From a virus (lineage: Duplodnaviria; Heunggongvirae; Uroviricota; Caudoviricetes): a stretch of 64,000 bases of DNA. Location of the stretch: IMG/VR virus record IMGVR_UViG_3300001336_000003, positions 1-64,000 of that record; one strand, 5' to 3'. Shown here in pieces: positions 2,099 to 58,525 of the stretch; the first letter of the stretch is position 1; each line of letters starts with the position of its first letter. Both the position numbers and the translations under genes were made by a program. The notes under the pieces were generated by a model. The model was not told the DNA's origin, searched no databases, and worked only from the letters and a program-made list of their open reading frames with translations.

Positions 2099-3442
2099 AT
2101 GACTCTATCAAATGATCAGTTAATTAAAAAGTGGGGACCACTTTTGGAGCACGGCAATTTTGCTCCAATCGAAAATAACCACAAGAAAGCTGTAACGGCT
2201 ACGATTCTGGAAAACACAGAAATCGCACTCCGTGAAGGCACAACAATGTCACCAAATTCCCTTCTAATGGAAACATCGACCAACGCTGTTGGTCAATGGG
2301 GTGCAGCACCTGGACTTTCTTCTGGTGCAGACGCAGCAGGCCCTGTCGCGGGTTATGACCCTGTTCTAATCAGCTTGGTCCGTCGCGCAATGCCAAACTT
2401 GATTGCATACGATATTGCTGGCGTCCAGCCAATGACTGGTCCTACTGGCCTTATCTTCGCTATGCGTTCAAAGTTTAACAAGATGGCTGGCAACACTTCT
2501 TCGGAAGCTTTCTATCTTGAAGCAGACAGCGCATTCTCTGGTGCTGGTGCACAAACAACTGAGTTGTTCCCTGCATCTGCAAACACAGATGTTGACTTCG
2601 GAACAGGTATGGCAACAGGCGTAGCAGAAACACTTGGAACCACAGGTAACGAATTTGGTGAAATGGCATTCTCGATTGAGAAAGTTGCCGTGGAAGCAAA
2701 AAGCCGCGCATTGAAAGCAGAATACACCACTGAACTTGCACAAGACCTTCGTGCTGTTCATGGTCTTGACGCTGAAACAGAACTTGCTAACATTCTTTCT
2801 AGCGAGATTCTTGTTGAAATCAACCGCGAAGTTATCCGCACAATCTATGCAACTTCTGTCGTAGGTGCTGAAGCAACTGCTGCAAGAGGCGTATTCGACC
2901 TTGATGTTGACGCAAACGGTCGTTGGTCTGTTGAAAAGTTCAAGGGCTTGATGTTCCAAATCGAACAAGAAGCTAACGCAATCGCAAAAGCGACCCGTAG
3001 AGGGAAGGGTAACATCGTTATCTGTTCTTCGGACGTAGCTTCCGCATTGCAAATGGCTGGTGTTCTTGACTACACCCCTGCACTTAACAGCAATAACCTT
3101 CAAGTTGATGACACTGGCAACACTTTTGCTGGTATCCTTAACGGACGCTTCCGCGTTTACATTGACCCATATGCAACAAACAACTACCTAGTTGTTGGTT
3201 ACAAAGGTTCTAGTGCATTTGACGCTGGTTTGTTCTATTGCCCATACGTTCCGCTACAAATGGTCCGTGCAATCGGTGAGAACACCTTCCAGCCAAAAAT
3301 CGGGTTCAAGACACGCTACGGCATGGTCGCAAACCCATTCGCACAAGGTGCAAACGCATTTGCTGGTCCAAACAACCCAAGTGGTCTTACAGCAAATACA
3401 AACGTCTACTACCGTAAGATGCGCGTTAAGAACCTTATGTAA
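2099..3442 (+). CDS. 23: major capsid protein gp23
   Basis: Blocks shared with T4 gp23: VRRAMPNLIAYDIAGVQPM; EAKSRALKAEYTTELAQDLRAVHGLDAE; FKGLMFQIEQEA; GRFRVYIDPYA..YLVVGYKG; FQPKIGFKTRYG. Start moved to MTLSND (2099) by RBS and T4 alignment; ORF track start 2069. Confidence 0.95.
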   Translation: MTLSNDQLIKKWGPLLEHGNFAPIENNHKKAVTATILENTEIALREGTTMSPNSLLMETSTNAVGQWGAAPGLSSGADAAGPVAGYDPVLISLVRRAMPNLIAYDIAGVQPMTGPTGLIFAMRSKFNKMAGNTSSEAFYLEADSAFSGAGAQTTELFPASANTDVDFGTGMATGVAETLGTTGNEFGEMAFSIEKVAVEAKSRALKAEYTTELAQDLRAVHGLDAETELANILSSEILVEINREVIRTIYATSVVGAEATAARGVFDLDVDANGRWSVEKFKGLMFQIEQEANAIAKATRRGKGNIVICSSDVASALQMAGVLDYTPALNSNNLQVDDTGNTFAGILNGRFRVYIDPYATNNYLVVGYKGSSAFDAGLFYCPYVPLQMVRAIGENTFQPKIGFKTRYGMVANPFAQGANAFAGPNNPSGLTANTNVYYRKMRVKNLM

Positions 3443-3515: not shown

Positions 3516-4888
3516 TCCCATATAAATTTTGCGTTGCCACAATCCCATATTCTATCCCAATTATCATCCATCATATTTTCATATTCTGTCTTTAATGGAT
3601 CGTAATTTTCCAATATATCACACAATTTGTGCTTTTGAAACTTCACACGAGAAAATAGCGTAGTGGTATTTTTCTTCCAATACCAGTAATTTGGTTCTGT
3701 CATGCCCACATAGTTAAAACCGCACTTCAAGTATACATTACCATCGCCAAATCTAAGATCAGAAAACGTCACTATACTTTCAGGACGCACTTCTTTTATG
3801 AAGTGATTTATTAATTTTGATACGCCACCTACAACTGTGTATTCACTATGTGAAGTTATCCTTGAACACTCATATTCGTATTTTTTGCTAAAACGGTTTT
3901 TTCCAAAAGAAGCTACCATAAGTAAATCACCACCATTAAAAAGACCATAGTGATGGCTCGCACCAACTGATGAATGTAGATGGTGTTCTTTATGAAACTG
4001 CATAGCTAATCTAGAATCTATTTTAGCTATTTGAGTTTTTCTTGCCCCTATTTTTTTGGTGCTACCTACCAACTTTGAAACTAGATACTTTACTTTTTCC
4101 ATGTCATCTGATTCGAAAACTGTTATTAGTCTATACCCCTTTTCTTTACATTTCAAGTATTTTTGTTTGTGGTAATTTTTTTTCTTTCCGCTTGATGTTT
4201 CTGAATGCCAATATAAACCACAATATTCAATAGCGATTTTCTTGTCTAAGTTAACTATATCCAATTCAAATGGGGCTATTATAGATCTGTCGCACCCTAT
4301 CCACGTGTCGTTTGGAAATTTACCCTTCAAATAATCATAAAGGTCTATTTCTGCTTTGCTACGCCAAGGTGGATTGATAGGTTCTATTTTTATATCATTT
4401 GACAAAAGTTGATTTCTTATATGTGTTTTGGACACGTTAAGCTTTTCGGCTAATGTGATAATAGATTTTGTTCTGTCATATTCTTTGTCAAGAAATTCTT
4501 TAGTGAAATGTATGTCTTGATGTTGCTTTTGCTTCCCCAATTTGGTAGACTCTGAAAGACTTCTAACTTCTATGTTACATTCTTCTATCCATTCGTATAT
4601 AGTAGCTTGGCTCACGCTGAAATATGCAGATAGCGATTCAATTGTAGATTCAGAATATAGCTGTTCGAGTTGTTTTTTATCAGGTTTTATTCTTTTTTTG
4701 TGTCTGGAATTTGCTTCCGTGGAAGCCTGTTTATGACTTTTTCTTTTTATGCTATGGTCTATAAGCCATTTTCTTACGGTTGGGTTAGAAGTATCGTATA
4801 GATTCGCCAAAGAAGAGATTGTCATCCCTTCTTTGGCATAGATACTTTCTAATTCGGATTTTGGTGGTATTGGTATTTTTTTACTCAT
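3509..4888 (-). CDS. free-standing homing-endonuclease-like protein: N-terminal repeated HTH modules + Vsr/DUF559-like PD-(D/E)XK nuclease core (IAIEYCGLYWHSE)
   Basis: 459 aa; three HTH-like segments (ISSLANLYDTSNPTVRKWL, IESLSAYFSVSQATIYEWI, ITLAEKLNVSKTHIRNQL); motif DIVNLDKKIAIEYCGLYWH similar to DFYLPDFNIAVEVNGTFWH of ORF 62430..63227; sits where T4 has segD after gene 23. Confidence 0.55.
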   Translation of the reverse strand: MSKKIPIPPKSELESIYAKEGMTISSLANLYDTSNPTVRKWLIDHSIKRKSHKQASTEANSRHKKRIKPDKKQLEQLYSESTIESLSAYFSVSQATIYEWIEECNIEVRSLSESTKLGKQKQHQDIHFTKEFLDKEYDRTKSIITLAEKLNVSKTHIRNQLLSNDIKIEPINPPWRSKAEIDLYDYLKGKFPNDTWIGCDRSIIAPFELDIVNLDKKIAIEYCGLYWHSETSSGKKKNYHKQKYLKCKEKGYRLITVFESDDMEKVKYLVSKLVGSTKKIGARKTQIAKIDSRLAMQFHKEHHLHSSVGASHHYGLFNGGDLLMVASFGKNRFSKKYEYECSRITSHSEYTVVGGVSKLINHFIKEVRPESIVTFSDLRFGDGNVYLKCGFNYVGMTEPNYWYWKKNTTTLFSRVKFQKHKLCDILENYDPLKTEYENMMDDNWDRIWDCGNAKFIWEQ

Positions 4889-4907
4889 ACCAAGCTAACA
4901 CTCCCCA

Positions 4908-5156
4908 TTACATCATACCCAAAGCCGACATATACATTTCAAGAACTGCTTCTTCTTCTGCAATGTCATCACGATTACGCTTGCGAAGTGCAATCACTTT
5001 TTTCATCACTTTTGTGTCATATCCGCGTCCTTTGGCTTCTGCCATAACTTCTTTTTGTTGGTCTGTAATGTCTTGCTTTTCTGCTTGAAGTCTTTCCCAA
5101 CGTTCGATAAATTGACGAAGTTCATCGGCGGTCACATTGTAAGCATCATCATTCAT
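4908..5156 (-). CDS. GapR-like DUF2312 DNA-binding protein
   Basis: 82 aa; LRQFIERWERLQAEKQDITDQQKEVMAEAKGRGYDTKVMKKVIALRK..AVLEMYMSALGMM matches the DUF2312/GapR family pattern. Confidence 0.65.
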   Translation of the reverse strand: MNDDAYNVTADELRQFIERWERLQAEKQDITDQQKEVMAEAKGRGYDTKVMKKVIALRKRNRDDIAEEEAVLEMYMSALGMM

Positions 5157-10480: not shown

Positions 10481-10555
10481 TATAAATATAGTTGTTAGTC
10501 GCGGTGCTGGAACACCCACTAACTCTATGTTGATTAAAAAAGGAGCAACACAGCT
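10481..10555 (+). promoter_or_regulatory. homing-endonuclease cassette leader: late promoter TATAAATA + GTCGCGG box + hairpin + CCCACTAACTCTA + AAAGGAG RBS
   Basis: conserved at 7 loci (see findings). Confidence 0.65.
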
Positions 10556-11389
10556 ATGACTATTTATCTTTACATCAAAAAACACAAAATAACAGGTTTA
10601 AAATATCTGGGTATAACTTCACAAGAAGACCCTCACAAATATACTGGTTCGGGTAAAAGATGGTTAAGACATCTTAAAAAACATGGATACGAATATACGA
10701 CTGATATTCTACTCGCCACAGAAAACAAAAAAGACATTGAAAGAACTGGGTTATTTTTTTCTATGTTGTGGAACATAGTAAAAAGCAGTGATTGGGCAAA
10801 TTTGACGGAAGAACGCGGGAATGGTGGTGACATGGGGTTTTCGGGTCTGGCGTCCACCAGAGAAAAAATGAGTAATTCGCACAAGAAAAAAGTAAAAGAA
10901 GGGACACATCATCTTTTATGTGGCGACATACAAAAACAATCAAATAAAAAAAGAATTGATGAGGGGACGCATAATTTATTAGGTAATAATAACCCATCGC
11001 ATAAAAGAGTTGCAGATGGAACACATCACTTTTTGGATATAAGCTGGCAAAAGAGTGTAGCAAAAAGTAGAACTCAGAAAGCTATAGATAACGGAAACCA
11101 CTATTTTTCATCAGATTTAGGAAAAGAAAATTTGAAAGCTTATCAACAAAAAAGAGTTGTTGAAGGAAGTCATAATTTTTTAGGTGAAAAAAATCCATCA
11201 CATGATAGAATAAAGAATAAAACACATAATTTTCTAGGCTCAATTTCATGTAGAGATAAGACAGGCAATTGCGTTCAAATTTCAAAAGATATATACTATC
11301 GTCAAACAGGCCCAATGGAAGATTGGGAATATGTTGTAGTTCGTTCCAAAGAAGGCAAAAAAAGAAAAGAACTTCTTACCAAGTGTTGA
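10556..11389 (+). CDS. free-standing homing endonuclease-like (IY-YLG / YxGSG N-domain, NUMOD-like GTHHxLG repeats)
   Basis: MTIYLYIKKHKITGLKYLGITSQEDPHKYTGSGKRWLRHLKKHGYEY; paralog of 41596..42237 and fragment 21700..21903; repeats EGTHHLL/EGTHNLL/DGTHHFL/EGSHNFL/NKTHNFLG. Confidence 0.6.
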   Translation: MTIYLYIKKHKITGLKYLGITSQEDPHKYTGSGKRWLRHLKKHGYEYTTDILLATENKKDIERTGLFFSMLWNIVKSSDWANLTEERGNGGDMGFSGLASTREKMSNSHKKKVKEGTHHLLCGDIQKQSNKKRIDEGTHNLLGNNNPSHKRVADGTHHFLDISWQKSVAKSRTQKAIDNGNHYFSSDLGKENLKAYQQKRVVEGSHNFLGEKNPSHDRIKNKTHNFLGSISCRDKTGNCVQISKDIYYRQTGPMEDWEYVVVRSKEGKKRKELLTKC

Positions 11390-21623: not shown

Positions 21624-21699
21624 TATAAATAAAAGTGTCGTTCACGGATTTCGTGGTGGTTATCCCAACGACTCTAAAAACAGCAAAGGAGTTTCCAGC
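21624..21699 (+). promoter_or_regulatory. homing-endonuclease cassette leader (TATAAATA ... GTTCACGG hairpin ATCCCAACGACTCTA ... AAAGGAGTTTCCAGC)
   Basis: same architecture as 10481, 23746, 34340, 41569, 46140, 53248. Confidence 0.6.
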
Positions 21700-21903
21700 A
21701 TGGATTATTTATATACGCATATAGAACATACACGACTTTATATAAAACAGTGCTCACACTGTGATTTGAAATATTTTGGCAAATCAGTCAGAAGAGACAT
21801 AGAAGATTATGAAGGTTCAGGTATTAAATGGAAGAATCATCTTAAAAAACATGAAGCAAACATCCAAATAAACAGAAATGGGTGTGTCAAGAGACAGGCT
21901 TAG
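21700..21903 (+). pseudogene. 5' fragment of a homing-endonuclease gene (67 codons of the YxGSG-type N-domain) with intact cassette leader
   Basis: MDYLYTHIEHTRLYIKQ..DYEGSGIKWKNHLKKHE parallels 10556 and 41596 N-termini but stops after 67 aa. Confidence 0.5.
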
Positions 21904-23745: not shown

Positions 23746-23820
23746 TATAAATAGTAACGTAGTTCACGGGATATGTGAGAGTCTCCCCAACTACTCTATA
23801 ACAACAAAGGAGTTACAGCT
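23746..23820 (+). promoter_or_regulatory. homing-endonuclease cassette leader
   Basis: TATAAATA, GTTCACGG, hairpin, CCCCAACTACTCTA, AAAGGAGTTACAGCT ATG. Confidence 0.6.
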
Positions 23821-24822
23821 ATGACTATTTATCAACCTTACTTTTATATAATTCAAGAAATATCTACTGGAATGTATTATGCTGGTGCGAAATGGGCGAA
23901 AGACGCAAATCCTAATGATTTTTTAACCCCAAATGGTTATCACACCTCTTCAAAATTAGTTAAATATCTAATCGAAAAAAACGGATTGCAATCATTTAAG
24001 ATTCGAAAAATAAAAACTTTTGCAAATATGTATGATACATATGAATATGAAACAAAATTTCTAAAAAAAGTAAACGCCAAAAGTAATTCTTGTTTCTTAA
24101 ATGGGCATGAAAATAATTGGGGTGTGACGGACAATACGAACATGGTTTCAGTAAAAAACAAAAGTGGTGAAAATTTTAAAGTTAGAGTAGATGACCCCAG
24201 ATACAGATCGGGAGAATTTTTCCACAACACCAAAGGAAAAGTTGTGGTAAAGGATGAAAATGGAAATACGTTTCAAATATGTGTTGATGATCCTAGATTC
24301 ATCACAAAAGAATTGCAACACGTTTCAAAAGGGACGACTGTCGCTTTGGATACCGTTACGGGCAAAGTTAAAAGAGTTTCCACAGATGATTTCAACCAAA
24401 CAAAAAATTTAGTCGGTATTTGTAACGGTTTCGTTCCTGTAATGGATACTTACGGGAACAAGTTCTCGGTTAATAGGGGTGACGTAAGATTTGAAACGGG
24501 TGAAATAAAGCATGTTACAAAAGGTAGGGTTACTGTAAAATCTACAGATGGTAAAACTATGAGTATATATACCACTGATCCGAGATATACATCTGGTGAA
24601 TTGGTTCACAATACTACTGGAATGGTAAGTGTGAAGGATAAACATGGCAATACAATGCAAGTTAGTAAAAAAGACCCAAGATACATTTCAGGCGAATTAG
24701 TCGGGGTTTCAAAAGGCATAAAAAGAACACCTCAAATAACAAAATGCCCGCATTGCAGCAAGAGCGGCGCTATGTCTCAAATGAAAAGATGGCATTTCGA
24801 AAATTGTAAGATGTTGCGGTAA
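23821..24822 (+). CDS. homing endonuclease-like protein with tandem about 22-aa repeats and C-terminal Cys finger, inserted inside rnlA
   Basis: IYQPYFYIIQEISTGMYYAGAKWA N-domain (paralog of 53328); 7-8 repeats of VxVKDxxGNTxxVxxDDPRYxSGELVH; C-terminal CPHCSKSGAMSQMKRWHFENCK. Confidence 0.6.
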   Translation: MTIYQPYFYIIQEISTGMYYAGAKWAKDANPNDFLTPNGYHTSSKLVKYLIEKNGLQSFKIRKIKTFANMYDTYEYETKFLKKVNAKSNSCFLNGHENNWGVTDNTNMVSVKNKSGENFKVRVDDPRYRSGEFFHNTKGKVVVKDENGNTFQICVDDPRFITKELQHVSKGTTVALDTVTGKVKRVSTDDFNQTKNLVGICNGFVPVMDTYGNKFSVNRGDVRFETGEIKHVTKGRVTVKSTDGKTMSIYTTDPRYTSGELVHNTTGMVSVKDKHGNTMQVSKKDPRYISGELVGVSKGIKRTPQITKCPHCSKSGAMSQMKRWHFENCKMLR

Positions 24823-34339: not shown

Positions 34340-34417
34340 TATAAATATGTTAGTCGCGGTACTACCAATACCCACTAACTCTAGAACCTGTCAACCTTAA
34401 AGAAGGAGTTCCAGCAC
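34340..34417 (+). promoter_or_regulatory. homing-endonuclease cassette leader
   Basis: TATAAATATGTTAGTCGCGGTACTACCAATACCCACTAACTCTAG...AAGGAGTTCCAGCAC ATG. Confidence 0.65.
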
Positions 34418-35263
34418 ATGGATATTTATTCCATATTGGCTTCAAAGCCTCACAATACGCACTACTTAAATAGATATATTAGATTTATTAAGCAATGTCA
34501 ACATAAAAACGTCAATCATAATGGATATGCCGAAAAGCATCATATTTGTCCCAAAGCCAAAGATATGTTTCCCGAATACGCATCTTTTAAAAAGAACAAG
34601 TGGAACCTTTCACTACTTACGCCAAGGCAACATTTCATAGCTCATATACTACTGTGGAAATCATATCCAAATATAGCCAGTATGACATATGCTGCTCATT
34701 CCATGCGAAATTATCAAGACACCAAAGTAAATAGCAGATTATACGAAAATTTGAAGATAGAATTTATAAAAACGCAGTCTACTAGGACTCACAAACAACA
34801 TCTAAACATGTCTATCGAAGAAAAGAATAAAATATCCGATAAAATTTCCACAAATTCTAAAAATTTAGTTCAGGCAAAAACCAAAGAAGGGTTGACTGTA
34901 AGGATAGCAAAAACAGAATTTGATAATAGTGTAAACTATGTTGGTCACACCAAAGGAATGACCACTGTGAAAGATGCTGATGGAAGGTTTCATTTTGTTT
35001 CTGTAGACGATCACAGAATAAAGTCTGGCGAACTTGTTGGACCCAATACTGGAAAAACTTTTAGTGAAGAAGTTAGAAAAAAGTTAAGAAAAGTCAGAAA
35101 GGGAAGAAAACATACAGAAAAAGCAAAGATGAAAATGAGAAAGCCTAAAGGACAACAGAAAAAATTAATATGCCCTTATTGTGGAAAGTGTGGTGGCGCA
35201 TCAAACATCAAAAGATACCACTATGAAAATTGCAAAAATGCAATTGTTGAACAGTTATCATGA
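34418..35263 (+). CDS. HNH homing endonuclease-like protein with the cassette-shared repeat unit and C-terminal Cys finger
   Basis: HNH core EKHHICPK....LTPRQHFIAH; one copy of VKDADGRFHFVSVDDHRIKSGELVG repeat; C-terminal CPYCGKCGGASNIKRYHYENCK. Confidence 0.7.
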   Translation: MDIYSILASKPHNTHYLNRYIRFIKQCQHKNVNHNGYAEKHHICPKAKDMFPEYASFKKNKWNLSLLTPRQHFIAHILLWKSYPNIASMTYAAHSMRNYQDTKVNSRLYENLKIEFIKTQSTRTHKQHLNMSIEEKNKISDKISTNSKNLVQAKTKEGLTVRIAKTEFDNSVNYVGHTKGMTTVKDADGRFHFVSVDDHRIKSGELVGPNTGKTFSEEVRKKLRKVRKGRKHTEKAKMKMRKPKGQQKKLICPYCGKCGGASNIKRYHYENCKNAIVEQLS

Positions 35264-39793: not shown

Positions 39794-40579
39794 TCACTTA
39801 TCGAAAATTACATTGACCCGATCTTCAAGGCTAAGATCGCCAAAATATCCCAAGTCAATTTCGTCTATTTTACTACGAATTACAGTTCTGTCAAGTGGTT
39901 TTTTACCATCTGGAATTTTATTCCAAACATCATCTGGCAGTTCTGTTTCGTAGTTCCTACGTTTCACATAAACACCATACTTCCACACGTTAGCAAGATC
40001 ATTCCAATCTTTACCTTCTTGAAGCATATATTCTTTCATCTGTTCACCACTAAGGTTTTCCATGGCCTTGTGACCACATGTCCAACGCATTATAGCAGAA
40101 ATACTATTTTTACGCGCATCTTGAACACGCCACAAAAGAACATTTGATGCTTCAATTTTGTTAGGAACGCCCCAAGACCGACAATCAAAATATGCCAGTT
40201 TATCGGTTTCGGCGTTTTCTTTCAGAAACTTGTTGAAGTTTGCTGTAGTCATAGAAGCAATGATGGAGTTGATTTTGGATGTTTTGCCACCAAAGATATG
40301 CTCGTTCTGCTTTTCACCCATACCATAGATAAGTGTGATTTCGTCTGATTGCGTATAACCGATATCAGCATTGGTAAGCTTTACAAGTTCTTTTGTGGTT
40401 TCCACCATTGTCTTTGTAAGACGATAATCGAAAGGCTTCACAAATCCCTTTGTAAATTTACTAAATCCTTTACCATCAATACGGACACATAGAATTTGTG
40501 AAGGCACAACGGTTTGTTTTGTAAACCGTCCTTCATAGTCTTTCATCCTATCGCCAAATTCATCGTTTTTCATCACCAA
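39794..40579 (-). CDS. Thg1-like protein (tRNA-His guanylyltransferase family 3'-5' nucleotidyltransferase)
   Basis: FGDRMKDYEGRF..ILCVRIDGKGFSKFTKGF..KPFD pattern and length about 260 aa. Confidence 0.75.
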   Translation of the reverse strand: MVMKNDEFGDRMKDYEGRFTKQTVVPSQILCVRIDGKGFSKFTKGFVKPFDYRLTKTMVETTKELVKLTNADIGYTQSDEITLIYGMGEKQNEHIFGGKTSKINSIIASMTTANFNKFLKENAETDKLAYFDCRSWGVPNKIEASNVLLWRVQDARKNSISAIMRWTCGHKAMENLSGEQMKEYMLQEGKDWNDLANVWKYGVYVKRRNYETELPDDVWNKIPDGKKPLDRTVIRSKIDEIDLGYFGDLSLEDRVNVIFDK

Positions 40580-40756
40580 ATCTCTTTTCTCATTCTTTCT
40601 GCTTCATCAATACCCCAACCTAGTGCAATACCGATGTAAAGAAACACAAAGCCGATTGCAACAAAAGGTAGAAAAATCAATCTGCGAATAATCAAATACC
40701 ACGGAAGTGCGTATTCAATATAACCTTCTGGATACTTATACCAACGCTTTTTCATA

Positions 40757-41242
40757 TTATCTAACCCCTGCCGCCTTATACAGTTCATTAACCCTTTCCT
40801 TGAAAAGTTTAGGGTTCCCTTGGCCTTTCGAAAACATCATTATTTCGTTGAAAGCCGTTTCTTCAGGAACTTGAAACCAATCCCAAAAACCATTCTTTTC
40901 AAAAAACTTGTAACATGATCTTACCCACACTTCTTCCATTGTAGATATGGCATGTCGCATTTTTTCGGTAGTTTCTGGTTTGTTGGGTTCGTATCTGGCA
41001 TAATCCCTCAAAAGAACCAGATACGAATCATCTTCAAAAGATTCGAAAGTCACACTTATGTGTTTTCTATTGACGTCTTTTGCTTCTATTCTAATCCAAA
41101 AACATTCTATATCATTTTGTGTTAGTGGTAAAGGAAAAAAACCTAGTTCTTTGGCTTTTTCCCGCATTTTTTCAAGGGTTTCACCCCTTCGATTAAAATG
41201 GCCAGAATCAAACTGTTCTATAATTTGGATAAGTTTATTCAT
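40757..41242 (-). CDS. hypothetical protein
   Basis: ORF track. Confidence 0.35.
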   Translation of the reverse strand: MNKLIQIIEQFDSGHFNRRGETLEKMREKAKELGFFPLPLTQNDIECFWIRIEAKDVNRKHISVTFESFEDDSYLVLLRDYARYEPNKPETTEKMRHAISTMEEVWVRSCYKFFEKNGFWDWFQVPEETAFNEIMMFSKGQGNPKLFKERVNELYKAAGVR

Positions 41243-41413
41243 CTAGGAGCCTCTTCAAGATAAGATGTTTCTGAAAGTCATTCCAACCATCTTTGATAGA
41301 TTTTCTGATATCAGGATCACGCGAGTCGCCAAATGCCTTATATGTTTGACTTAATGACATGCCTTGCTTTGACATTTCTGCACCAAATTTCCAAATTCTA
41401 AGGTTGTCATTCA

Positions 41414-41565
41414 TCACATTTTCATCTTTTTGTGTTGCATTTCTGGAAAGTTAACTTCCAAAGTGTTCACATCAATATCACAATAACTAAGCTCGTTCAA
41501 GCAAATAAACCTAGTCCCATCAATGACTTCATCTGCATTGCTGTGCCAATGGCCAAAGATAGATT
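41414..41565 (-). pseudogene. diverged duplicate of the 3' end of the metallophosphoesterase gene (remnant downstream of the endonuclease insertion)
   Basis: QSIFGHWHSNADEVIDGTRFICLNELSYCDIDVNTLEVNFPE vs 42203..42883 C-terminus HVFGHWHNDADRIIDGTRFICLDELSYVDIDTETLEVKWPD. Confidence 0.65.
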
Positions 41566-41568
41566 GTT

Positions 41569-41595
41569 TATAAATAAGTATGGTTCGCGGATTTC
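41569..41595 (+). promoter_or_regulatory. homing-endonuclease cassette leader (TATAAATA..GGTTCGCGG hairpin ATCCCAACCATTCTAG..AAAGGAGTTCCAGC; extends into remnant ORF)
   Basis: same motif order as other cassettes. Confidence 0.6.
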
Positions 41596-42237
41596 TTGGC
41601 AGGCATCCCAACCATTCTAGAAACACAAAGGAGTTCCAGCATGCATTATTTATATGTAAAAACACATAATAAAACGGGTTTAAAATATTTAGGAAAGACA
41701 AAATCTAAAGATCCATTTAAATATAGGGGTTCAGGAAAATACTGGAAACGGCATATTAATAAGCACGGTTATGATGTCACAACTCAAATATTACTTGTTA
41801 CTGAAAACAAAGAAGAATTAAAGCAAACTGGCCTATTCTTTAGTAAATTATGGAATATAGTAAAATCACGAGAATGGGCAAATTTGAAATTGGAAAATGG
41901 CGATGGGGGTTGGGATCATATAATATTAAAGGGTAGAACTTTTTCAGATGAAACTAAAAGAAAAATGTCAATATCTGCTATCGTAAGACAAACTGGTGAA
42001 ACAAATTCATTTTACGGAAAAACACATTCTGATGAAACTAGAAAATTGATTGGAGAACATAGTAAAGAAAGAGGTAAAGAGCAATATACAAAAAGAATAA
42101 ATAATGGCACTCATCCTAACAACAAAAGTGTATGCCCTCATTGCAATAAAATTGGACAATATAGAGCAATGAAAAGATGGCATTTTGATAATTGTAAATT
42201 ACTTAACTCTTTGGTTGTCTTCCATCAGGCCACTTAA
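41596..42237 (+). CDS. free-standing homing endonuclease-like (YxGSG-type N-domain, NUMOD3-like units, C-terminal Cys finger)
   Basis: MHYLYVKTHNKTGLKYLGKTKSKDPFKYRGSGKYWKRHINKHGYD close paralog of 10556; GKTHSDETRKLI unit; CPHCNKIGQYRAMKRWHFDNCK. Confidence 0.65.
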   Translation: MAGIPTILETQRSSSMHYLYVKTHNKTGLKYLGKTKSKDPFKYRGSGKYWKRHINKHGYDVTTQILLVTENKEELKQTGLFFSKLWNIVKSREWANLKLENGDGGWDHIILKGRTFSDETKRKMSISAIVRQTGETNSFYGKTHSDETRKLIGEHSKERGKEQYTKRINNGTHPNNKSVCPHCNKIGQYRAMKRWHFDNCKLLNSLVVFHQAT

Positions 42238-42883
42238 CTTCTAGTGTTTCCGTATCGATATCTACATAACTCAGTTCATCTAGGCAAATAAATCTTGTTC
42301 CATCGATGATACGATCAGCATCATTGTGCCAATGACCAAATACGTGCAGTTTAGGCTTGTGAATTTCAAGCATAGCTTCCAATGCCATGCCAGTTCTGGT
42401 CTTATATTGCTTGTTCGAAAACGATTTCCCATTTTCGATGAAAAGCTTGTTTGAAACAGACAGGGGACAATCATGTGTCACCATAATCGAAGGCGCGACC
42501 AATGTATATACATCAATCAAGCGTTCTAGTTCTTCATACGAAAGTTCTTCATCATCCCAAATGTCAATGCCTTTGGTTCGCCATTGATAATCAATAGACC
42601 ACGCACCACCAACATACATGATGTCATTTTCCACCACGCCATCTGGAATCCATGTTTTCATGGTTTTACACATGGATGGATTGTCATGATTGCCGCGAAT
42701 GAAACGTCCATTGACTTTTTGCATCATATCATCAAGCGATTCATGCCAATAGTCGCCTTGCCCAAAACCAATACCCATATCGCCCACTTGAACGACAGAA
42801 GTAACATCTTGTGGAATGTTATCCAAAAGAATGCTCAGTTCGTATTTTAGACCATGAACGTCACCAATAAATCTAGTTTTCAT
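42203..42883 (-). CDS. calcineurin-like metallophosphoesterase (candidate polynucleotide phosphatase)
   Basis: GDVHG, GDMG, GNHD, GHWH motifs. Confidence 0.7.
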   Translation of the reverse strand: MKTRFIGDVHGLKYELSILLDNIPQDVTSVVQVGDMGIGFGQGDYWHESLDDMMQKVNGRFIRGNHDNPSMCKTMKTWIPDGVVENDIMYVGGAWSIDYQWRTKGIDIWDDEELSYEELERLIDVYTLVAPSIMVTHDCPLSVSNKLFIENGKSFSNKQYKTRTGMALEAMLEIHKPKLHVFGHWHNDADRIIDGTRFICLDELSYVDIDTETLEVKWPDGRQPKS

Positions 42884-43389
42884 AGTTCTTTTCCATAAAT
42901 GTCATATTTTCTAATCGCGTCAAAACCTTCATCTAGTGCAGGTTCGACATATGAATTAACCATAGACTTGATAACATGATCAGGAATAGTTTTGCCTTTA
43001 CGGCTTTGCAAACGACGATTCCATTCTGTAATATCTTCTACGGTTTCGGGAGGTGTGAAGACAATTGCCTCAACCCTGTATCCAAATTTTTTCATTTTTT
43101 CAATGATAGAACGGCGCTTTTTTACACCGAGATTTGTCTGATCCCAATACACGTCAACTTTCATTTTAATGGCTTCTGCAAGCCAAATGTCAGATTCCAA
43201 CTTGGCAGGACCAATGTGTTTATCAAAAACTTCATCGTAAGTCTTGTCAAGTTGTTTGGCAACACGTTCAAGAACATTGTCTGTGCTATAGACAAACACA
43301 GTGTCAGCAAACTCAGGATCTTCAACAAAATTTAAAAGAGTGGACTTCCCACTCGCAGGAAGTCCGACAAGAACAAAACAAGTAGGCAT
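42880..43389 (-). CDS. P-loop polynucleotide kinase-like protein (Pnk kinase-domain-like)
   Basis: VLVGLPASGKST Walker A; size 169 aa; adjacent to phosphoesterase. Confidence 0.55.
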   Translation of the reverse strand: MPTCFVLVGLPASGKSTLLNFVEDPEFADTVFVYSTDNVLERVAKQLDKTYDEVFDKHIGPAKLESDIWLAEAIKMKVDVYWDQTNLGVKKRRSIIEKMKKFGYRVEAIVFTPPETVEDITEWNRRLQSRKGKTIPDHVIKSMVNSYVEPALDEGFDAIRKYDIYGKEL

Positions 43390-43688
43390 ACTTAACCTTT
43401 CATATACACATTTTTCAAATAGGTTCCGACACCTTTTTCAACAAATTCTTTGGTGTAGTGAACTTCTCCATTCGGTTTTTCGATGACAAGTTCATAGGTA
43501 ACAGAAAAATATTTGGATGGAGGGGTTACACGATAATCAACTACAAGACCTTCTTCAATCGGGTAATAGGCACCCCAATTCATAATGACTTCGGTTCCGA
43601 TTGCGACAGAAGTGATATTTTCGGCAGTGATTTTCATAGCGAACCTCTTTTGATTACTCTTATAATATAAGTGATCGATTCGCCTATG

Positions 43689-46139: not shown

Positions 46140-46212
46140 TATAAATATAAGTGCCAGTCGCGGTTGCCGCCAAGAAACCCACTGACTCTATGTTTAGTAA
46201 CCCAAAGAGAGG
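46140..46212 (+). promoter_or_regulatory. homing-endonuclease cassette leader
   Basis: TATAAATATAAGTGCCAGTCGCGGTTGCCGCCAAGAAACCCACTGACTCTATG...GAGGAACACAGCAC ATG. Confidence 0.65.
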
Positions 46213-47089
46213 AACACAGCACATGTATATTTATCTGATACGCAATATCATCAATGACAAGATTTATATTGGTCAAACTACAAAAACACCCGAAAAAAGA
46301 TTTAGGCAGCATGTATACACAAGTAAAAGACTAAAGACACAACTATATAACTCTATGAACAAATACGGCGAAGAAAATTTCATAGTAGAAGTTCTGGAAG
46401 TTGTTCAGGACAAGAGCCTTCTAGACCCAAGGGAAATATATTGGATAGCGGAACTGGAGCCAGAGTATAACATGACTATAGGTGGCCAAAGAAGTAGTAC
46501 CACAGAAAAATACACGGAAGAGCGTAAACGCGAAAGATCGGCAAAAAGTTCCGCTTCCATAAAAAAGATGTGGGATTCCATGAGTGAAGATGAACGCAAA
46601 GAACGCATGAAAAAAACCCACGCAAAAACAGATTACAAATCACATTCTGATAAACTTTCGGTTTCTAGAAGAAGATTTTTTACGAATGAAACTGAAGAGC
46701 AGAAAGCAATTAGAATAGAAAAAGCTAAAATAGGTGCCAAGAAAACAGAAAAAATCAAATGTCATTATTGTGATCAGGAAATTGGTGGTGGTAAATATAA
46801 TCTAGTAAAACACGAAGAAGTATGCTCAAAAAATCCATCATCAAAAAATTTTGGGAAAAGCACAAAAAAGAAACAACCTTATAGCTATACAATACTAGAT
46901 CCAAACAATACAAAGCATATAACATCATCATTTAAGGGATTTTGCAAAACACACAATCTTTCAAGATATTTGCTTATGAAAAATATTGGAAGTGTAGTTG
47001 AAAGCGTTGACGCTAAAACTAATAACGCCAACGCAACAACAATAAATACCTTTGGGTGGTGTTTACTTAGGATTGATGATCTGACTTAG
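46151..47089 (+). CDS. GIY-YIG homing endonuclease with NUMOD3-like repeats and C-terminal Cys finger
   Basis: YIYLIRNIINDKIYIGQT..RFRQH..LYNSMNKYG..NFIVEVLE..REIYWIAELEPEYN is the canonical GIY-YIG domain; TEERKRERSAKSS/ERKERMKKTHAKT units; CHYCDQEIGGGKYNLVKHEEVC. Confidence 0.85.
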   Translation: MPVAVAAKKPTDSMFSNPKRGTQHMYIYLIRNIINDKIYIGQTTKTPEKRFRQHVYTSKRLKTQLYNSMNKYGEENFIVEVLEVVQDKSLLDPREIYWIAELEPEYNMTIGGQRSSTTEKYTEERKRERSAKSSASIKKMWDSMSEDERKERMKKTHAKTDYKSHSDKLSVSRRRFFTNETEEQKAIRIEKAKIGAKKTEKIKCHYCDQEIGGGKYNLVKHEEVCSKNPSSKNFGKSTKKKQPYSYTILDPNNTKHITSSFKGFCKTHNLSRYLLMKNIGSVVESVDAKTNNANATTINTFGWCLLRIDDLT

Positions 47090-53247: not shown

Positions 53248-53327
53248 TATAAATAATAATATAGGTCGCGGAGTACCAGTCCCACCTATTCTACGTTTAT
53301 AGCTTTAGAAAGAAAGGAACGCAGCTT
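53248..53327 (+). promoter_or_regulatory. homing-endonuclease cassette leader
   Basis: TATAAATAATAATATAGGTCGCGGAGTACCAGTCCCACCTATTCTACG...AAAGGAACGCAGCTT ATG. Confidence 0.6.
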
Positions 53328-54371
53328 ATGGCTATTTATTCACCATACACATATCTTATCGGATGGTCAAGACTTAATACGTGGTATTATGGCGTAAGAT
53401 ATGCAAGAAAAAGTCAATGTCTTTATGAAAGTGGTTGTCATCCAGACGAACTTTGGGTCACTTATTTCACATCTTCGAAACATGTTAAAGATTTCAGGGA
53501 AAAACATGGCGAGCCAGATGTTATACAAGTCAGGAAAACTTTTCCATCAGACTCCTCAAAATCACAAGAAGACGAAAAAGAACTTGCACGAAGCGCTCTT
53601 CTTTGGGAAGAAAAAATTCTTATTCGTGTAGGTGCTATACATAAGGATATGTGGATCAACAAGAGCATCGCAGGTCATTTCAGGACCACAGAGAGTAACC
53701 CCAATCCACTAAAGGGTAAAACATACGAAGAAGTATATGGAGTTGAAAAATCAGAAGAGTGGAAACACGCGACGAGTATCGCCAGCCAAAAATTTTGGAA
53801 TTCAGATGCAGGTAAAGAAAGAAAAAAATACCTATCTGAAAATATAAGTGAAAACTTTACCACTCTTGGCATAGAACCAGTGTGTAAAATTAAAGATACT
53901 TTTATTCATGTATGTGAGATATGTGGCGAGTTTAATAAAAGAAGAAAAACAGCAGGTGAGTTGAAAAAGAAAACTTGCGGTAGCAAATCGTGTGCAATAA
54001 AATGGTTCTATAAATACAATCCAGAAGCAGCAAAATCTAAAATGCCTCCAACAAAGTTCACTACTATAGGCCACGAACCAGTAAATAAAATCACCGATAC
54101 ATTTCTATGGAAGTGCGTTGTGTGCGGGGTTTCATGCGTAAAGCGTGATACAATAAAAAATAGAAACAAGATAACATGTGGCAAATCTTGTGCAGCAACT
54201 TACAACAACCGAAAAAGAGTAGAAAACGGATATACAAAACAAGGTTCAACGTATAAACACAAAGGTAAAAAGTTTTTAATAACCAATGGTTATGAAACAG
54301 CATTGTTAGAAAAAGGCGACCAGATTCCACAAGGATGGGAATCTGGTCGCCATTGGAAACCAAAAGGTTAG
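53328..54371 (+). CDS. free-standing homing endonuclease-like protein (IY-YLIG N-domain, two Zn-ribbon repeats)
   Basis: MAIYSPYTYLIGWSRLNTWYYGVRYA paralog of 23821 N-domain; repeats IEPVCKIKDTFIHVCEICG / HEPVNKITDTFLWKCVVCG each followed by CGxxCA. Confidence 0.6.
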   Translation: MAIYSPYTYLIGWSRLNTWYYGVRYARKSQCLYESGCHPDELWVTYFTSSKHVKDFREKHGEPDVIQVRKTFPSDSSKSQEDEKELARSALLWEEKILIRVGAIHKDMWINKSIAGHFRTTESNPNPLKGKTYEEVYGVEKSEEWKHATSIASQKFWNSDAGKERKKYLSENISENFTTLGIEPVCKIKDTFIHVCEICGEFNKRRKTAGELKKKTCGSKSCAIKWFYKYNPEAAKSKMPPTKFTTIGHEPVNKITDTFLWKCVVCGVSCVKRDTIKNRNKITCGKSCAATYNNRKRVENGYTKQGSTYKHKGKKFLITNGYETALLEKGDQIPQGWESGRHWKPKG

Positions 54372-56857: not shown

Positions 56858-58525
56858 CTAAACTGCCATAGGTGCTTTAATTGTTGGGTGGCACTGATAA
56901 TTTTTAAGTGTAAACATATTTACCGTATTAAAATTGAATCCGTATGTCAAACCTTTAGACAAAACAAAGTCTTCTGATATTTCTAATGTTGGTAGAGGAT
57001 ATTCTTTTCTCGTAAGTTGTTCCCGAACCTGTTCAATATGATTATTATATATGTGTGCATCACCTATGGAATATACGAGTTCACCAACTTGCATATTAAC
57101 TTCTCTAGCCAAAATATGAATAAGAAGTGCATATGAAGCAATGTTGAAAGGCGCACCCAAAAATGCGTCATTTGATCTCATTGTTAACATCCCGCTTAAT
57201 TTGTTCTCTCTGACAATAAGTTGAAAGAAACAGTGGCATGGTGGTAGTGCTTGCATATCTATAACCGTAGGATTCCATGCTGACAATATGATTCTTCTTG
57301 ATTCGGGTTCGTTTTTTATTTGGTTTATTATATTTACGATTTGGTCGGCCACCACCTTTTTACGAAATACATGTCCATTAGAAGCTTGAATATATTTTAG
57401 ACTATACCCATTATAACTTTCACCTGTGTCTAACAAATAAGAAATCCTCGCCAGTGTCAAATCATCTATGCTATTGCATATGTCTGTTTTATACAGATAG
57501 TCTTTGTATGTATCATAGTGGAAAACTCTTATTTTTCTATGATGGTCTACTTGTTTATTGGCTATTGCCAAGTTCATCTTTTTTGGTAGAAATATGCAAG
57601 TGTGTTTAGAATAGATGTCAGAGCAATAGTAATCTTTATCCAATTCGTAGTCATTATTCATCTTAACCCATTCATAAAATCCTGGGATTTTATCTATGTC
57701 TAGTAAAAAATTCTTAAAATCCATCCAACTATCAGAAACACGAACACCCCTAGCCCCATAATTTCTATAACTTAGATGTTTTTTATTATAGCATCTATCT
57801 ATCATATGAATCCATAGTTTATATGCTTTCTTATAGTAAGATGGTTTATCACCTCTGAATGAATTGTTTGCCACCCCCTTAATCAAAGGGTTGAGGCAAA
57901 TCTTCTTAGGTATATTACTTCCTAAAATTTTAGTCAATTCACCCGTATCTAGTGCTTGCGCTATGTAAGTTTTTCGATATTTGTCGTTGCTGCACAGACC
58001 TAATATTTTAATGGGTCTACCAGATTTAGATGTAAATCTATAGCCCGTATATTTGTGTCCATCGCCGTAGTCTGCAAATTCAATAACTTCTTTAGCCGTA
58101 TCTATCGTTTCTTTGCGTTCTGGAACTTCTGTAATTTGTTCGCTGGCAGAATACCAATTTCTCCACATACTGCCATACACAGGACCAAGAAGCCCTATAG
58201 ATTCGATAGAATCATACCCTAAATTTTTTCCTTGGTGTATTAGATTATCTGTCCATATCGTTTGTTTACCTACCAATTCCTCACGGGGTTTGCCATATGT
58301 CAATTCAGCAAGTCGTCTTTCATCTGTGCCGCCTTCAAGAAACCATAACAATTCACCCACAACAGATTTCCATGCGAGTTTCTTTGTGGTGACGGCTGGA
58401 AACCCATCGTTCAAATCAAATCGCATCTGATAACCAAAAACAGAACGTGTTCCAACACCAGTTCTATCTTCAACATCAACACCATTTTCCAAGACGTGTC
58501 TAATCAAATCATGATATTGTTGCAT
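56858..58525 (-). CDS. td: thymidylate synthase ThyA carrying an in-frame about 265-aa insertion that contains an HNH-endonuclease motif
   Basis: N-terminus DRTGVGTRSVFGYQMRFDL..FPAVTTKK..LLWFL..LGPVYGSMWRNW and C-terminus SRRIILSAWNP..ALPPCH.FFQ..RSNDAFLGAPFNIASYALL..GDAHIY match ThyA; middle has KLWIHMIDRCYNKKHLSYRNYGARGVRVSDSWMDFKNF (phage HNH family). Confidence 0.85.
   Translation of the reverse strand: MQQYHDLIRHVLENGVDVEDRTGVGTRSVFGYQMRFDLNDGFPAVTTKKLAWKSVVGELLWFLEGGTDERRLAELTYGKPREELVGKQTIWTDNLIHQGKNLGYDSIESIGLLGPVYGSMWRNWYSASEQITEVPERKETIDTAKEVIEFADYGDGHKYTGYRFTSKSGRPIKILGLCSNDKYRKTYIAQALDTGELTKILGSNIPKKICLNPLIKGVANNSFRGDKPSYYKKAYKLWIHMIDRCYNKKHLSYRNYGARGVRVSDSWMDFKNFLLDIDKIPGFYEWVKMNNDYELDKDYYCSDIYSKHTCIFLPKKMNLAIANKQVDHHRKIRVFHYDTYKDYLYKTDICNSIDDLTLARISYLLDTGESYNGYSLKYIQASNGHVFRKKVVADQIVNIINQIKNEPESRRIILSAWNPTVIDMQALPPCHCFFQLIVRENKLSGMLTMRSNDAFLGAPFNIASYALLIHILAREVNMQVGELVYSIGDAHIYNNHIEQVREQLTRKEYPLPTLEISEDFVLSKGLTYGFNFNTVNMFTLKNYQCHPTIKAPMAV

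Follow-up and report, generated by a model that had tools for sequence, protein, structure and literature searches.

The window analysed here is a stretch of 64,000 nucleotides (nt) from an uncultured tailed phage (IMG/VR record IMGVR_UViG_3300001336_000003, positions 1 to 64,000). The phage is T4-like according to its Gp23 capsid protein (Pfam E=1e-142), which is 64% identical to that of Sinorhizobium phage phiM12 and to that of Methylophilales phage Melnitz. The subject of this work is an insert in its metallophosphoesterase gene, which has replaced the 3' end of that gene and which carries an antisense gene for a putative homing endonuclease. Beyond the insert lies a second, diverged copy of the phosphoesterase 3' end. 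The locus is composed of the following features, given with their window coordinates.

41235..41417, minus strand: native downstream gene of 60 amino acids (aa), in synteny with the cassette-free contigs L119 and L120
41414..41559, minus strand: displaced native 3' end (copy B), a pseudogene fragment, (I)FGHWHSNADEVIDG...NFPEMQHKKMKM followed by a stop codon (blastn, 111/114 in the core)
41543..41557, minus strand: 15-mer TTTGGCCATTGGCAC coding for FGHWH, where the pseudogene fragment meets the cassette
41560..42349: whole inserted cassette of 790 nt, standing in place of the 7 nt GTTTGGC that the empty allele has here (three-way alignment)
41569..41576, plus strand: TATAAATA, which fits the consensus of T4-type late promoters and lies 72 nt upstream of the endonuclease ATG
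41580..41615, plus strand: conserved leader hairpin of the endonuclease mRNA, with outer stem ATGGTT...AACCAT and inner stem GG..CC (covariation)
41627..41633, plus strand: ribosome-binding site AAAGGAG of the endonuclease gene, read from the sequence and conserved in the leader alignment
41641..42237, plus strand: free-standing gene of the putative homing endonuclease, 198 aa, antisense to its neighbours (NUMOD3, phrog_314)
42203..42349, minus strand: imported replacement 3' end (copy A), codons 179-226 and stop, KLHVFGHWHNDADRII...KWPDGRQPKS (divergence starts at 42349)
42350..42883, minus strand: native 5' part of the phosphoesterase gene, codons 1-178 (95-97% nt identity to L119 and L120 in the three-way alignment)
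42203..42883, minus strand: the chimeric metallophosphoesterase gene as a whole, 226 aa, intact and of full length (Pfam Metallophos E=2e-8; phrog_1649)

The two 3' ends form a direct repeat. A repeat finder pairs 41442-41557 with 42225-42340, which is 116 nt without gaps at 71% identity and with a spacing of 783 nt. In the repeat core of 38 codons both copies are in register, with 80 of 114 nt and 28 of 38 aa identical, while 100 shuffles of the 3 kb around it reach 53/114 at best. The pairwise alignment of both copies is thus significant, which confirms the earlier note on this DNA in its claim of a diverged copy of the phosphoesterase 3' end beyond the endonuclease gene. The coordinates and the figure of about 70% nucleotide identity given there are essentially right, as is the placement of the endonuclease cassette between the gene and this copy. 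The similarity had been described as higher at the amino-acid level; it is higher, but only slightly so (about 74% against about 71%). Codon by codon, the similarity sets in abruptly at the codon of phosphoesterase F181 and extends over about 38-40 codons. The lower copy lies in the frame 41701..41414 on the minus strand, which is still open, as the note had stated. This frame lacks an ATG and a ribosome-binding site and offers only a TTG, and its terminal part reads IFGHWHSNADEVIDGTRFICLNELSYCDIDVNTLEVNFPEMQHKKMKM.

The identity of both copies is revealed by alleles without the cassette. Two metagenome contigs, L119 (JGI 3300042952) and L120 (SRR25242035), are cassette-free and have flanks that are 95-97% identical to the window. 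Their gene order is kinase, phosphoesterase, a 59-aa gene and a 161-aa gene, and the endonuclease is absent. Their phosphoesterases, P0002 and P0003 (228 aa), were found by protein search with the window phosphoesterase and match it near-perfectly through residue 177. Over residues 1-177 the chimeric protein is about 99% identical to both, and in the C-terminal core identity falls to 28 of 38 residues. Beyond residue 177 both proteins read KVWLFGHWHSNADEVIDGTRFICLNELSYCDIDVNTLEVNFPEMQHKRMKM, as does the downstream copy but not the end attached to the gene. Of the 38 core residues, the downstream copy shares all with P0003 and 37 with P0002. At the nucleotide level it is identical to the L119 and L120 core at 111 of 114 positions (about 97%), and the few changes are mostly silent. 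The gene-attached copy reaches 78-82 of 114 (about 70%) against the same native ends. The first 177 codons are identical to L119 and L120 at 506 and 516 of 531 nt, respectively, with almost all differences synonymous.

Between the attached and the downstream copy, the proportion of differing synonymous sites (pS) is 0.82 and that of nonsynonymous sites (pN) is 0.17. Synonymous sites are therefore saturated, and from these two values it follows that both copies evolved as coding sequence in separate lineages. Because of this saturation and because the downstream copy equals the cassette-free ends at 97%, the attached 3' end is imported. We conclude that the end now attached to the gene is foreign and that the downstream copy is the displaced native end. 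The earlier note had it the other way round: it took the gene-attached copy as native and the downstream copy as the remnant of a target-site duplication. The comparison with relatives that lack the cassette, which it had proposed, is what overturns this part. With the orphan copy native and the fused copy imported, duplication in place and a transposon-style target-site duplication are both ruled out. The repeat also does not look like one of the transposon type, as it is about 120 nt long at 70% identity and joins one native with one foreign copy, and no transposase is present. A repeat search of the region found no inverted repeats at the cassette borders.

The same alleles define the borders to the nucleotide. 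In a three-way nucleotide alignment with L119 and L120, the attached copy departs from the empty alleles at 42349, and the right arm of both contigs aligns to the window from exactly 41559 downward with 96.3-96.5% identity (blastn). The net gain of 783 nt (790 - 7) equals the spacing of the repeat. The insertion point is thus not at the 3' end of the gene, where it had been placed before; it falls on codons 179-181 of the reading frame, some 48 codons short of the stop. The cassette entered at the codons for FGHWH, which is the conserved GHxH metal-binding motif of calcineurin-like phosphoesterases. With the new 3' end that comes with the cassette, the gene remains intact. The last 35 nt of the endonuclease gene overlap the stop region of the phosphoesterase gene, and the real start of the endonuclease is the ATG at 41641 behind AAAGGAG. 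At the other border the start of the 60-aa gene overlaps the stop of the displaced end, just as it overlapped the phosphoesterase stop in the empty alleles. The insert is not a group I intron or an intein by the features looked for: Rfam gives no match in 41200-42500 (E up to 1) and the endonuclease gene is antisense. The phosphoesterase gene also has a stop codon of its own, ahead of the remaining insert, which likewise speaks against both.

The product of the antisense gene is, judged by matches of the protein and of its family, a GIY-YIG endonuclease of the I-TevI/Seg type with a modular DNA-binding region made up of NUMOD3 and a zinc finger. It matches Pfam NUMOD3 (E=4.5e-12) and phrog_314 'homing endonuclease' (E=1.4e-22). 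With a profile built from 19 homologues, the catalytic domain of I-TevI (1LN0) is matched over positions 4-85 (E=3.8e-5), and its DNA-binding domain (1I3J) weakly (E=0.018). Within the family, six members match Pfam SegE_GIY-YIG and four match GIY-YIG. For the catalytic residues expected of this type (two Tyr, Arg, Glu and Asn), the window protein offers Y5, Y16, K/R36-37 and N81 as candidates, of which N81 is invariant; the place of the Glu is less certain, as described below for residue 62. The C-terminal zinc finger CPHC...MKRWHFDNC has C165, C168, H181 and C185 invariant.

The endonuclease gene appears to carry its own control region. The motif TATAAATA occurs 20 times in the window where 5.1 are expected, which is about four-fold over-representation, and its position is conserved in related cassettes; we infer that the copy at 41569..41576 is the late promoter of the endonuclease. 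A scan for sigma-70 promoters and terminators gave counts at chance level. For the leader hairpin, 97.9% of alignment cells are paired and 6 of 11 pairs show compensatory changes. Covariation scores 0.586; shuffles give 0.19 (0 of 500 reach the observed value) and sliding the partners gives at most 0.136. RNAalifold supports the same structure. The hairpin does not cover the ribosome-binding site, and a search of cassette and leader against Rfam returned nothing.

Upstream of the promoter lies the FGHWH end of the displaced fragment. In four cassettes whose endonucleases are 43-72% identical, those of the window, L015, L019 and L001, this stub stands 10-12 nt upstream of TATAAATA. In the endonuclease-sense alignment it is seen as GTGCCARTGNCC, the antisense of GHWH, before (T/C)ATAAATA. 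The stub persists even where the remaining displaced fragment has decayed. A search of IMG/VR for the junction pattern TGCCARTGNCCNRA, followed after 7-14 nt by TATAAATA, found two known contigs only, together with two chance matches that have neither gene. Kept beside the promoter in diverged cassettes, the stub would fit a role as homology arm. By analogy with the I-TevI operator it may also be a binding site for autorepression by the endonuclease, which we regard as a lead and not as a finding.

Judging from related loci, the end of the phosphoesterase gene has evidently been a landing site more than once. The majority of phosphoesterase loci are empty. A megablast search of 40500-43500 against 50,697 phage records for close relatives gave no match. 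L015 (IMGVR_UViG_3300028388_001406) has an endonuclease 72% identical to that of the window and the same three-part layout, with the displaced fragment IFGHWHNDVDEVIDGTRFICLGELSVMDMEIV ending in a stop codon. In Ochrobactrum phage vB_OspM_OC (L001) an endonuclease of 43% identity sits in the same place and orientation and overlaps the phosphoesterase stop by 38 nt; beyond its promoter stands the stub FFGHWH with a stop codon. L019 has an endonuclease of 49% identity and the stub SGHWH. At the same site, without fragment and without stub, are the endonucleases of L129-L132 (70-73% identical) and of L101 (44% identical). In vB_OspM_OC, L101 and L129-L132 the homologous endonuclease gene is convergent with the phosphoesterase gene and overlaps its stop. 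The state of the displaced fragment varies: L129-L132 have none, L019 and L001 keep 5-6 codons of it, and L015 has a truncated version. In Rhizobium phage RHph_I1_18 this position is taken by a GIY-YIG gene unrelated to that of the window, and no displaced fragment was found there (alignment score 16 against a shuffle maximum of 25).

Three further observations concern these loci. In L015 the displaced fragment and the attached end (2816-3061 and 3558-3700) share 57 of 60 nt at their FGHWH ends, beyond which the similarity drops sharply. Gene conversion between the two could be the cause, or donor and recipient may have been alike in this part. In L006 (IMGVR_UViG_3300017613_000491) a frameshifted N-terminal endonuclease remnant lies at 4831-4977 between the phosphoesterase and DNA polymerase genes. 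It is decayed, with 66% identity over residues 1-50 only, which suggests an advanced stage in the life cycle of an endonuclease at this site. Odd short C-terminal tails of other phosphoesterases were considered as scars of past cassettes, and this was rejected, as P0006, P0011 and P0020 are all cassette-free.

The exact endonuclease protein with the same structure is found in three further independent assemblies, L126, L127 and L128. The four sequences represent two haplotypes, the window with L128 and L126 with L127. Between the haplotypes, 27 of 1100 positions differ in the left flank and 36 of 862 in the right flank (63 of 1962 in total, 2.5-4.2%), while none of 788 differs in the cassette. 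From the flanks about 25 cassette differences are expected, and zero has a Poisson probability of about 1e-11. The nearest flank differences are 42389 and 42392 on the left (40 nt from the border) and 41552 on the right (8 nt). It follows from this difference between cassette and flanks that the cassette is much younger than its surroundings and is present on two or more backgrounds, with hardly any of the flanks co-converted. On either side the identical tract stops within the first polymorphic interval, as one would expect of break-induced repair at the cassette border. Together with L015, where the host phosphoesterase is only 54% identical to that of the window against 72% for the endonuclease, the count of 0/788 against 63/1962 indirectly indicates mobility between genomes.

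Taken together, the locus has a chimeric target gene, a displaced native fragment and cassette-free alleles in the same population, which are the marks of an element that replaces the 3' end of its target. We consider it probable that the 790-nt insert is a mobile cassette in the phosphoesterase gene of a T4-like phage, built from a foreign 3' end, an antisense GIY-YIG endonuclease gene and its own late promoter and leader. Homing-type repair is the most likely origin. The earlier description as a footprint of double-strand-break repair stands to this extent; the co-conversion of flanking sequence that it invoked makes no duplicate by itself.

From the sequences, the following course of events can be proposed. 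The endonuclease, or a very recent active ancestor, would cut cassette-free alleles at or next to the FGHWH codons, within a predicted cleavage region of about 30 bp by TTTGGACATTGGCAC of the empty allele. The break would be repaired from a cassette-bearing genome in a co-infected cell. Here, the left broken end would pair with the gene body of the filled genome, and the right broken end with the FGHWH stub or fragment kept beside the cassette promoter. Synthesis would then copy the replacement 3' end and the endonuclease gene, and the recipient's own 3' end would be pushed downstream to become a new untranslated fragment. The imported end would be the cleavage-resistant allele; ahead of FGHWH it has L-H/Y-V/I in place of V-W-L, and beyond FGHWH numerous silent changes. 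The empty alleles closest to the window have V-W-L before FGHWH. L-H/Y-V/I is found there in 5 of 5 cassette-bearing and 2 of 6 cassette-free alleles, a weak association that is not corrected for relatedness.

Several observations weigh against such a recently active mobile cassette. As a single sequence, the window endonuclease stays below the Pfam GIY-YIG threshold and has no PDB match. Its residue 62 is Gln, where Glu or Asp is found in 10 of 10 aligned members of the close clade (49-73% identical). Residue 62 may be the position of the catalytic glutamate, although its alignment to I-TevI E75 is not firm, and the window copy may in that case be inactive. The Gln62 codon CAA (codons 61-62 are window positions 41821-41826) is one nucleotide from GAA and is common to all four cassette-carrying assemblies; the change may have arisen recently and have inactivated a catalytic residue. 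Among the C-termini of 120 homologues no near-identical donor of the imported 3' end was found, the best having 32 of 38 aa identical. In four of the five next-closest endonuclease loci read, L129-L132 at the same site, the downstream fragment is absent, and in L133 an endonuclease of 69% identity is not located beside a phosphoesterase gene. The identical cassette on two haplotypes, finally, could in part reflect ordinary recombination after a single insertion.

The best surviving alternative builds on these points. A foreign 3' end with a now-inactive endonuclease could have entered once as a passenger and have been shuffled since by general recombination, with no cleavage by the enzyme. Recombination is very frequent in T4-like phages, and at many flanking sites L126 has the base of the empty alleles. 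The flanks are visibly mosaic among all six alleles, so frequent general recombination after a single entry stays an alternative. Gln62 and the close relatives at the same site without a downstream fragment agree with it as well. Against it stand the absence of any difference across the cassette and the end of the identical tract within the first polymorphic interval on both sides. In addition, the same junction recurs within about 3 nt in endonuclease lineages that are 43-49% identical, and the endonuclease reading frame is intact. We therefore regard a passenger cassette as unlikely, though it deserves more weight than any of the following explanations.

Very little speaks for a duplication in place, in which the insertion, transposon-like or by a repair slip, duplicated the 3' end of the gene and both copies diverged where they sit. 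It would explain why a direct repeat flanks the endonuclease gene. It cannot make one copy so divergent while the flanks stay near-identical, given that the attached copy differs at saturated synonymous sites, the downstream copy agrees with cassette-free ends and the rest of the gene is 95-97% identical to them. The repeat of about 120-146 nt is also imperfect, and its borders are without terminal inverted repeats.

A functional downstream copy, for example a translated 95-aa protein or an alternative C-terminus, is just as improbable. Its frame is open from 41701 to 41414 and the few differences from native alleles are mostly silent, but this near-identity is explained by recent insertion. 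The only start is the TTG mentioned above, the upstream part of the open stretch is the antisense of the endonuclease 5' end, and related cassettes have the fragment truncated, reduced or lost. A metagenome assembly chimera of two phosphoesterase alleles, conceivable for an uncultured-phage contig when both allele types co-occur in public data, can practically be dismissed given the identical structure in four assemblies from different samples, the diverged version in L015, the clean borders and a cassette with its own promoter, leader and gene.

The cassette leader is not the only one of its kind in the window. A shared leader module occurs in seven copies on the plus strand, at 10481-10558, 21624-21703, 23746-23823, 34340-34420, 41569-41643, 46140-46225 and 53248-53330. 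It is made up of TATAAATA, the covarying hairpin (..GTCGCGG...CCCAC..), TCTA, AAGGAG and ..CAGC.ATG, and has no Rfam match. Each copy lies directly 5' of a plus-strand endonuclease open reading frame (ORF) among minus-strand genes, and the catalytic types of these ORFs differ. A covariance model from nine leaders found two further copies outside the training set and 20 matches in 64 related loci, many of which end at an endonuclease start. As seven endonuclease genes of different catalytic types share this leader in one window, promoter and hairpin leader point to a control module that is exchanged among selfish genes.

The genes behind the other leader copies are in different states. At 21700-21903 (plus strand) a truncated N-terminal remnant of 67 aa, GIY-YIG-like (MDYLYTHIEHTRLYIKQCSHCDLKYFGK...), follows an intact leader module and looks like a decaying endonuclease gene. 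The leader-bearing ORFs 23821-24822 and 34418-35263 (both plus strand) have different N-terminal domains, the second with an HNH-like HH..H region. Both share the C-terminal zinc finger CPxCxKxG..MKRWHF(D/E)NC with the phosphoesterase-associated endonuclease, and this suggests a shuffling of DNA-binding and leader modules between endonuclease families. The ORF 46140-47089 (plus strand) is listed from a GTG at 46151. The likelier start is an ATG near 46223 (MYIYLIRNIINDKIYIGQT) directly after the leader, which most likely is correct as it yields a clean Pfam GIY-YIG match from residue 1 (E=2e-13). At the other endonuclease genes of the window we found no flanking duplication of a neighbour gene, only internal repeats. 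Elsewhere in the window, the thymidylate synthase ORF 56858-58525 (minus strand) codes for 555 aa, about twice the usual length. It matches its Pfam family in two stretches, the second being residues 378-555 at profile positions 100-266. An in-frame insertion of about 270 aa is thereby implied, and no intein or endonuclease Pfam match was found in this ORF.

Beyond the locus itself, the arrangement would mean that free-standing phage endonucleases could settle inside a gene, at a conserved motif of the active site, and leave the gene working. This would be a third route into an essential reading frame, besides introns or inteins and gene splitting. It would also explain hybrid genes and orphan gene fragments in phage genomes that are otherwise annotated as pseudogenes or duplications. 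The case is unusually testable, with filled and empty alleles of 95-97% identity in public data and borders known to the nucleotide. As a more tentative proposal, which we put forward as possible and hold with less confidence than the mobile cassette as such, the element could correspond, in phages, to the WHO elements of yeast. Its endonuclease, being free-standing, would then home into a gene interior without intron or intein, together with a resistant gene end and with the FGHWH stub as portable right arm and possibly as autorepression site. If this is true, each homing event regenerates a fresh pseudogene fragment from the recipient, and repeated rounds would drive chimeric, fast-changing C-termini of this phosphoesterase family across T4-like phages.

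In the WHO elements of Torulaspora and Lachancea yeasts, integration at FBA1 swaps the 3' end of the gene for a resistant foreign one, and the old 3' end is pushed downstream as a fragment that is proposed to act as recombination arm (Coughlan et al. 2020, PMC7282813). In both systems the endonuclease gene is located directly downstream of a full-length target gene whose 5' and 3' parts have discordant histories. The systems differ in the enzyme, which is GIY-YIG here and derived from inteins/LAGLIDADG in WHO, and in the host, as transfer in a phage would be by co-infection and not in meiosis. The phage endonuclease gene is antisense and overlaps the target stop in a single cassette, whereas WHO genes form a tandem cluster.

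A match in layout is also offered by mobile endonuclease ORFs of fungal mitochondria, with C-terminal duplications described for atp6 of Allomyces macrogynus and for atp6, atp9, cox2 and nad3 of Glomus (PMC3630166, citing Paquin et al. 1994). There, identity to a close relative is 91-98% for the native C-terminus and 64-81% for the inserted one; the 97% and 70% found here are almost the same figures. The order of inserted foreign C-terminus, endonuclease ORF and native C-terminus is shared as well, and the atp9 case has a GIY-YIG enzyme. In contrast to the window cassette, the mitochondrial ORFs mostly share the strand of the gene and in many cases its frame. An organelle is the host instead of a virus, and the window cassette has its own late promoter and leader.

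Among phage systems, the Seg and Mob endonucleases of T4 (SegF, SegG, SegB, SegE; PMC2988022) are nearest. They share the T4-like host and the GIY-YIG, NUMOD3 and zinc-finger modules. As in their 'intronless homing', insertion is between or next to genes, control by a late promoter is predicted, and spread would be by cutting the allele of a related phage and co-conversion of flanking markers. The seg genes differ in that they lie between genes or split a gene into two working pieces, as in Aeh1 nrdA, while the window element is inside a reading frame and carries a substitute gene end. For I-TevI autorepression, the operator resembles the homing site and overlaps the late promoter (Edgell et al. 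2004, in the summary given in PMC2988022). Similar to this, four diverged cassettes retain part of the presumed target, the FGHWH 15-mer, close to the endonuclease promoter, but the stub is upstream of the promoter and does not overlap it. The words 'duplicat' and 'pseudogene' are absent from the 2010 review of T4 mobile elements (PMC2988022). In full-text searches and in that review we found no phage case of 3'-end replacement by a homing endonuclease, with publication elsewhere being possible. The principle of 3'-end replacement is thus already known from fungal mitochondria and yeast; what is apparently new here is the type of host, the antisense overlapping layout and the stub retained next to the promoter.

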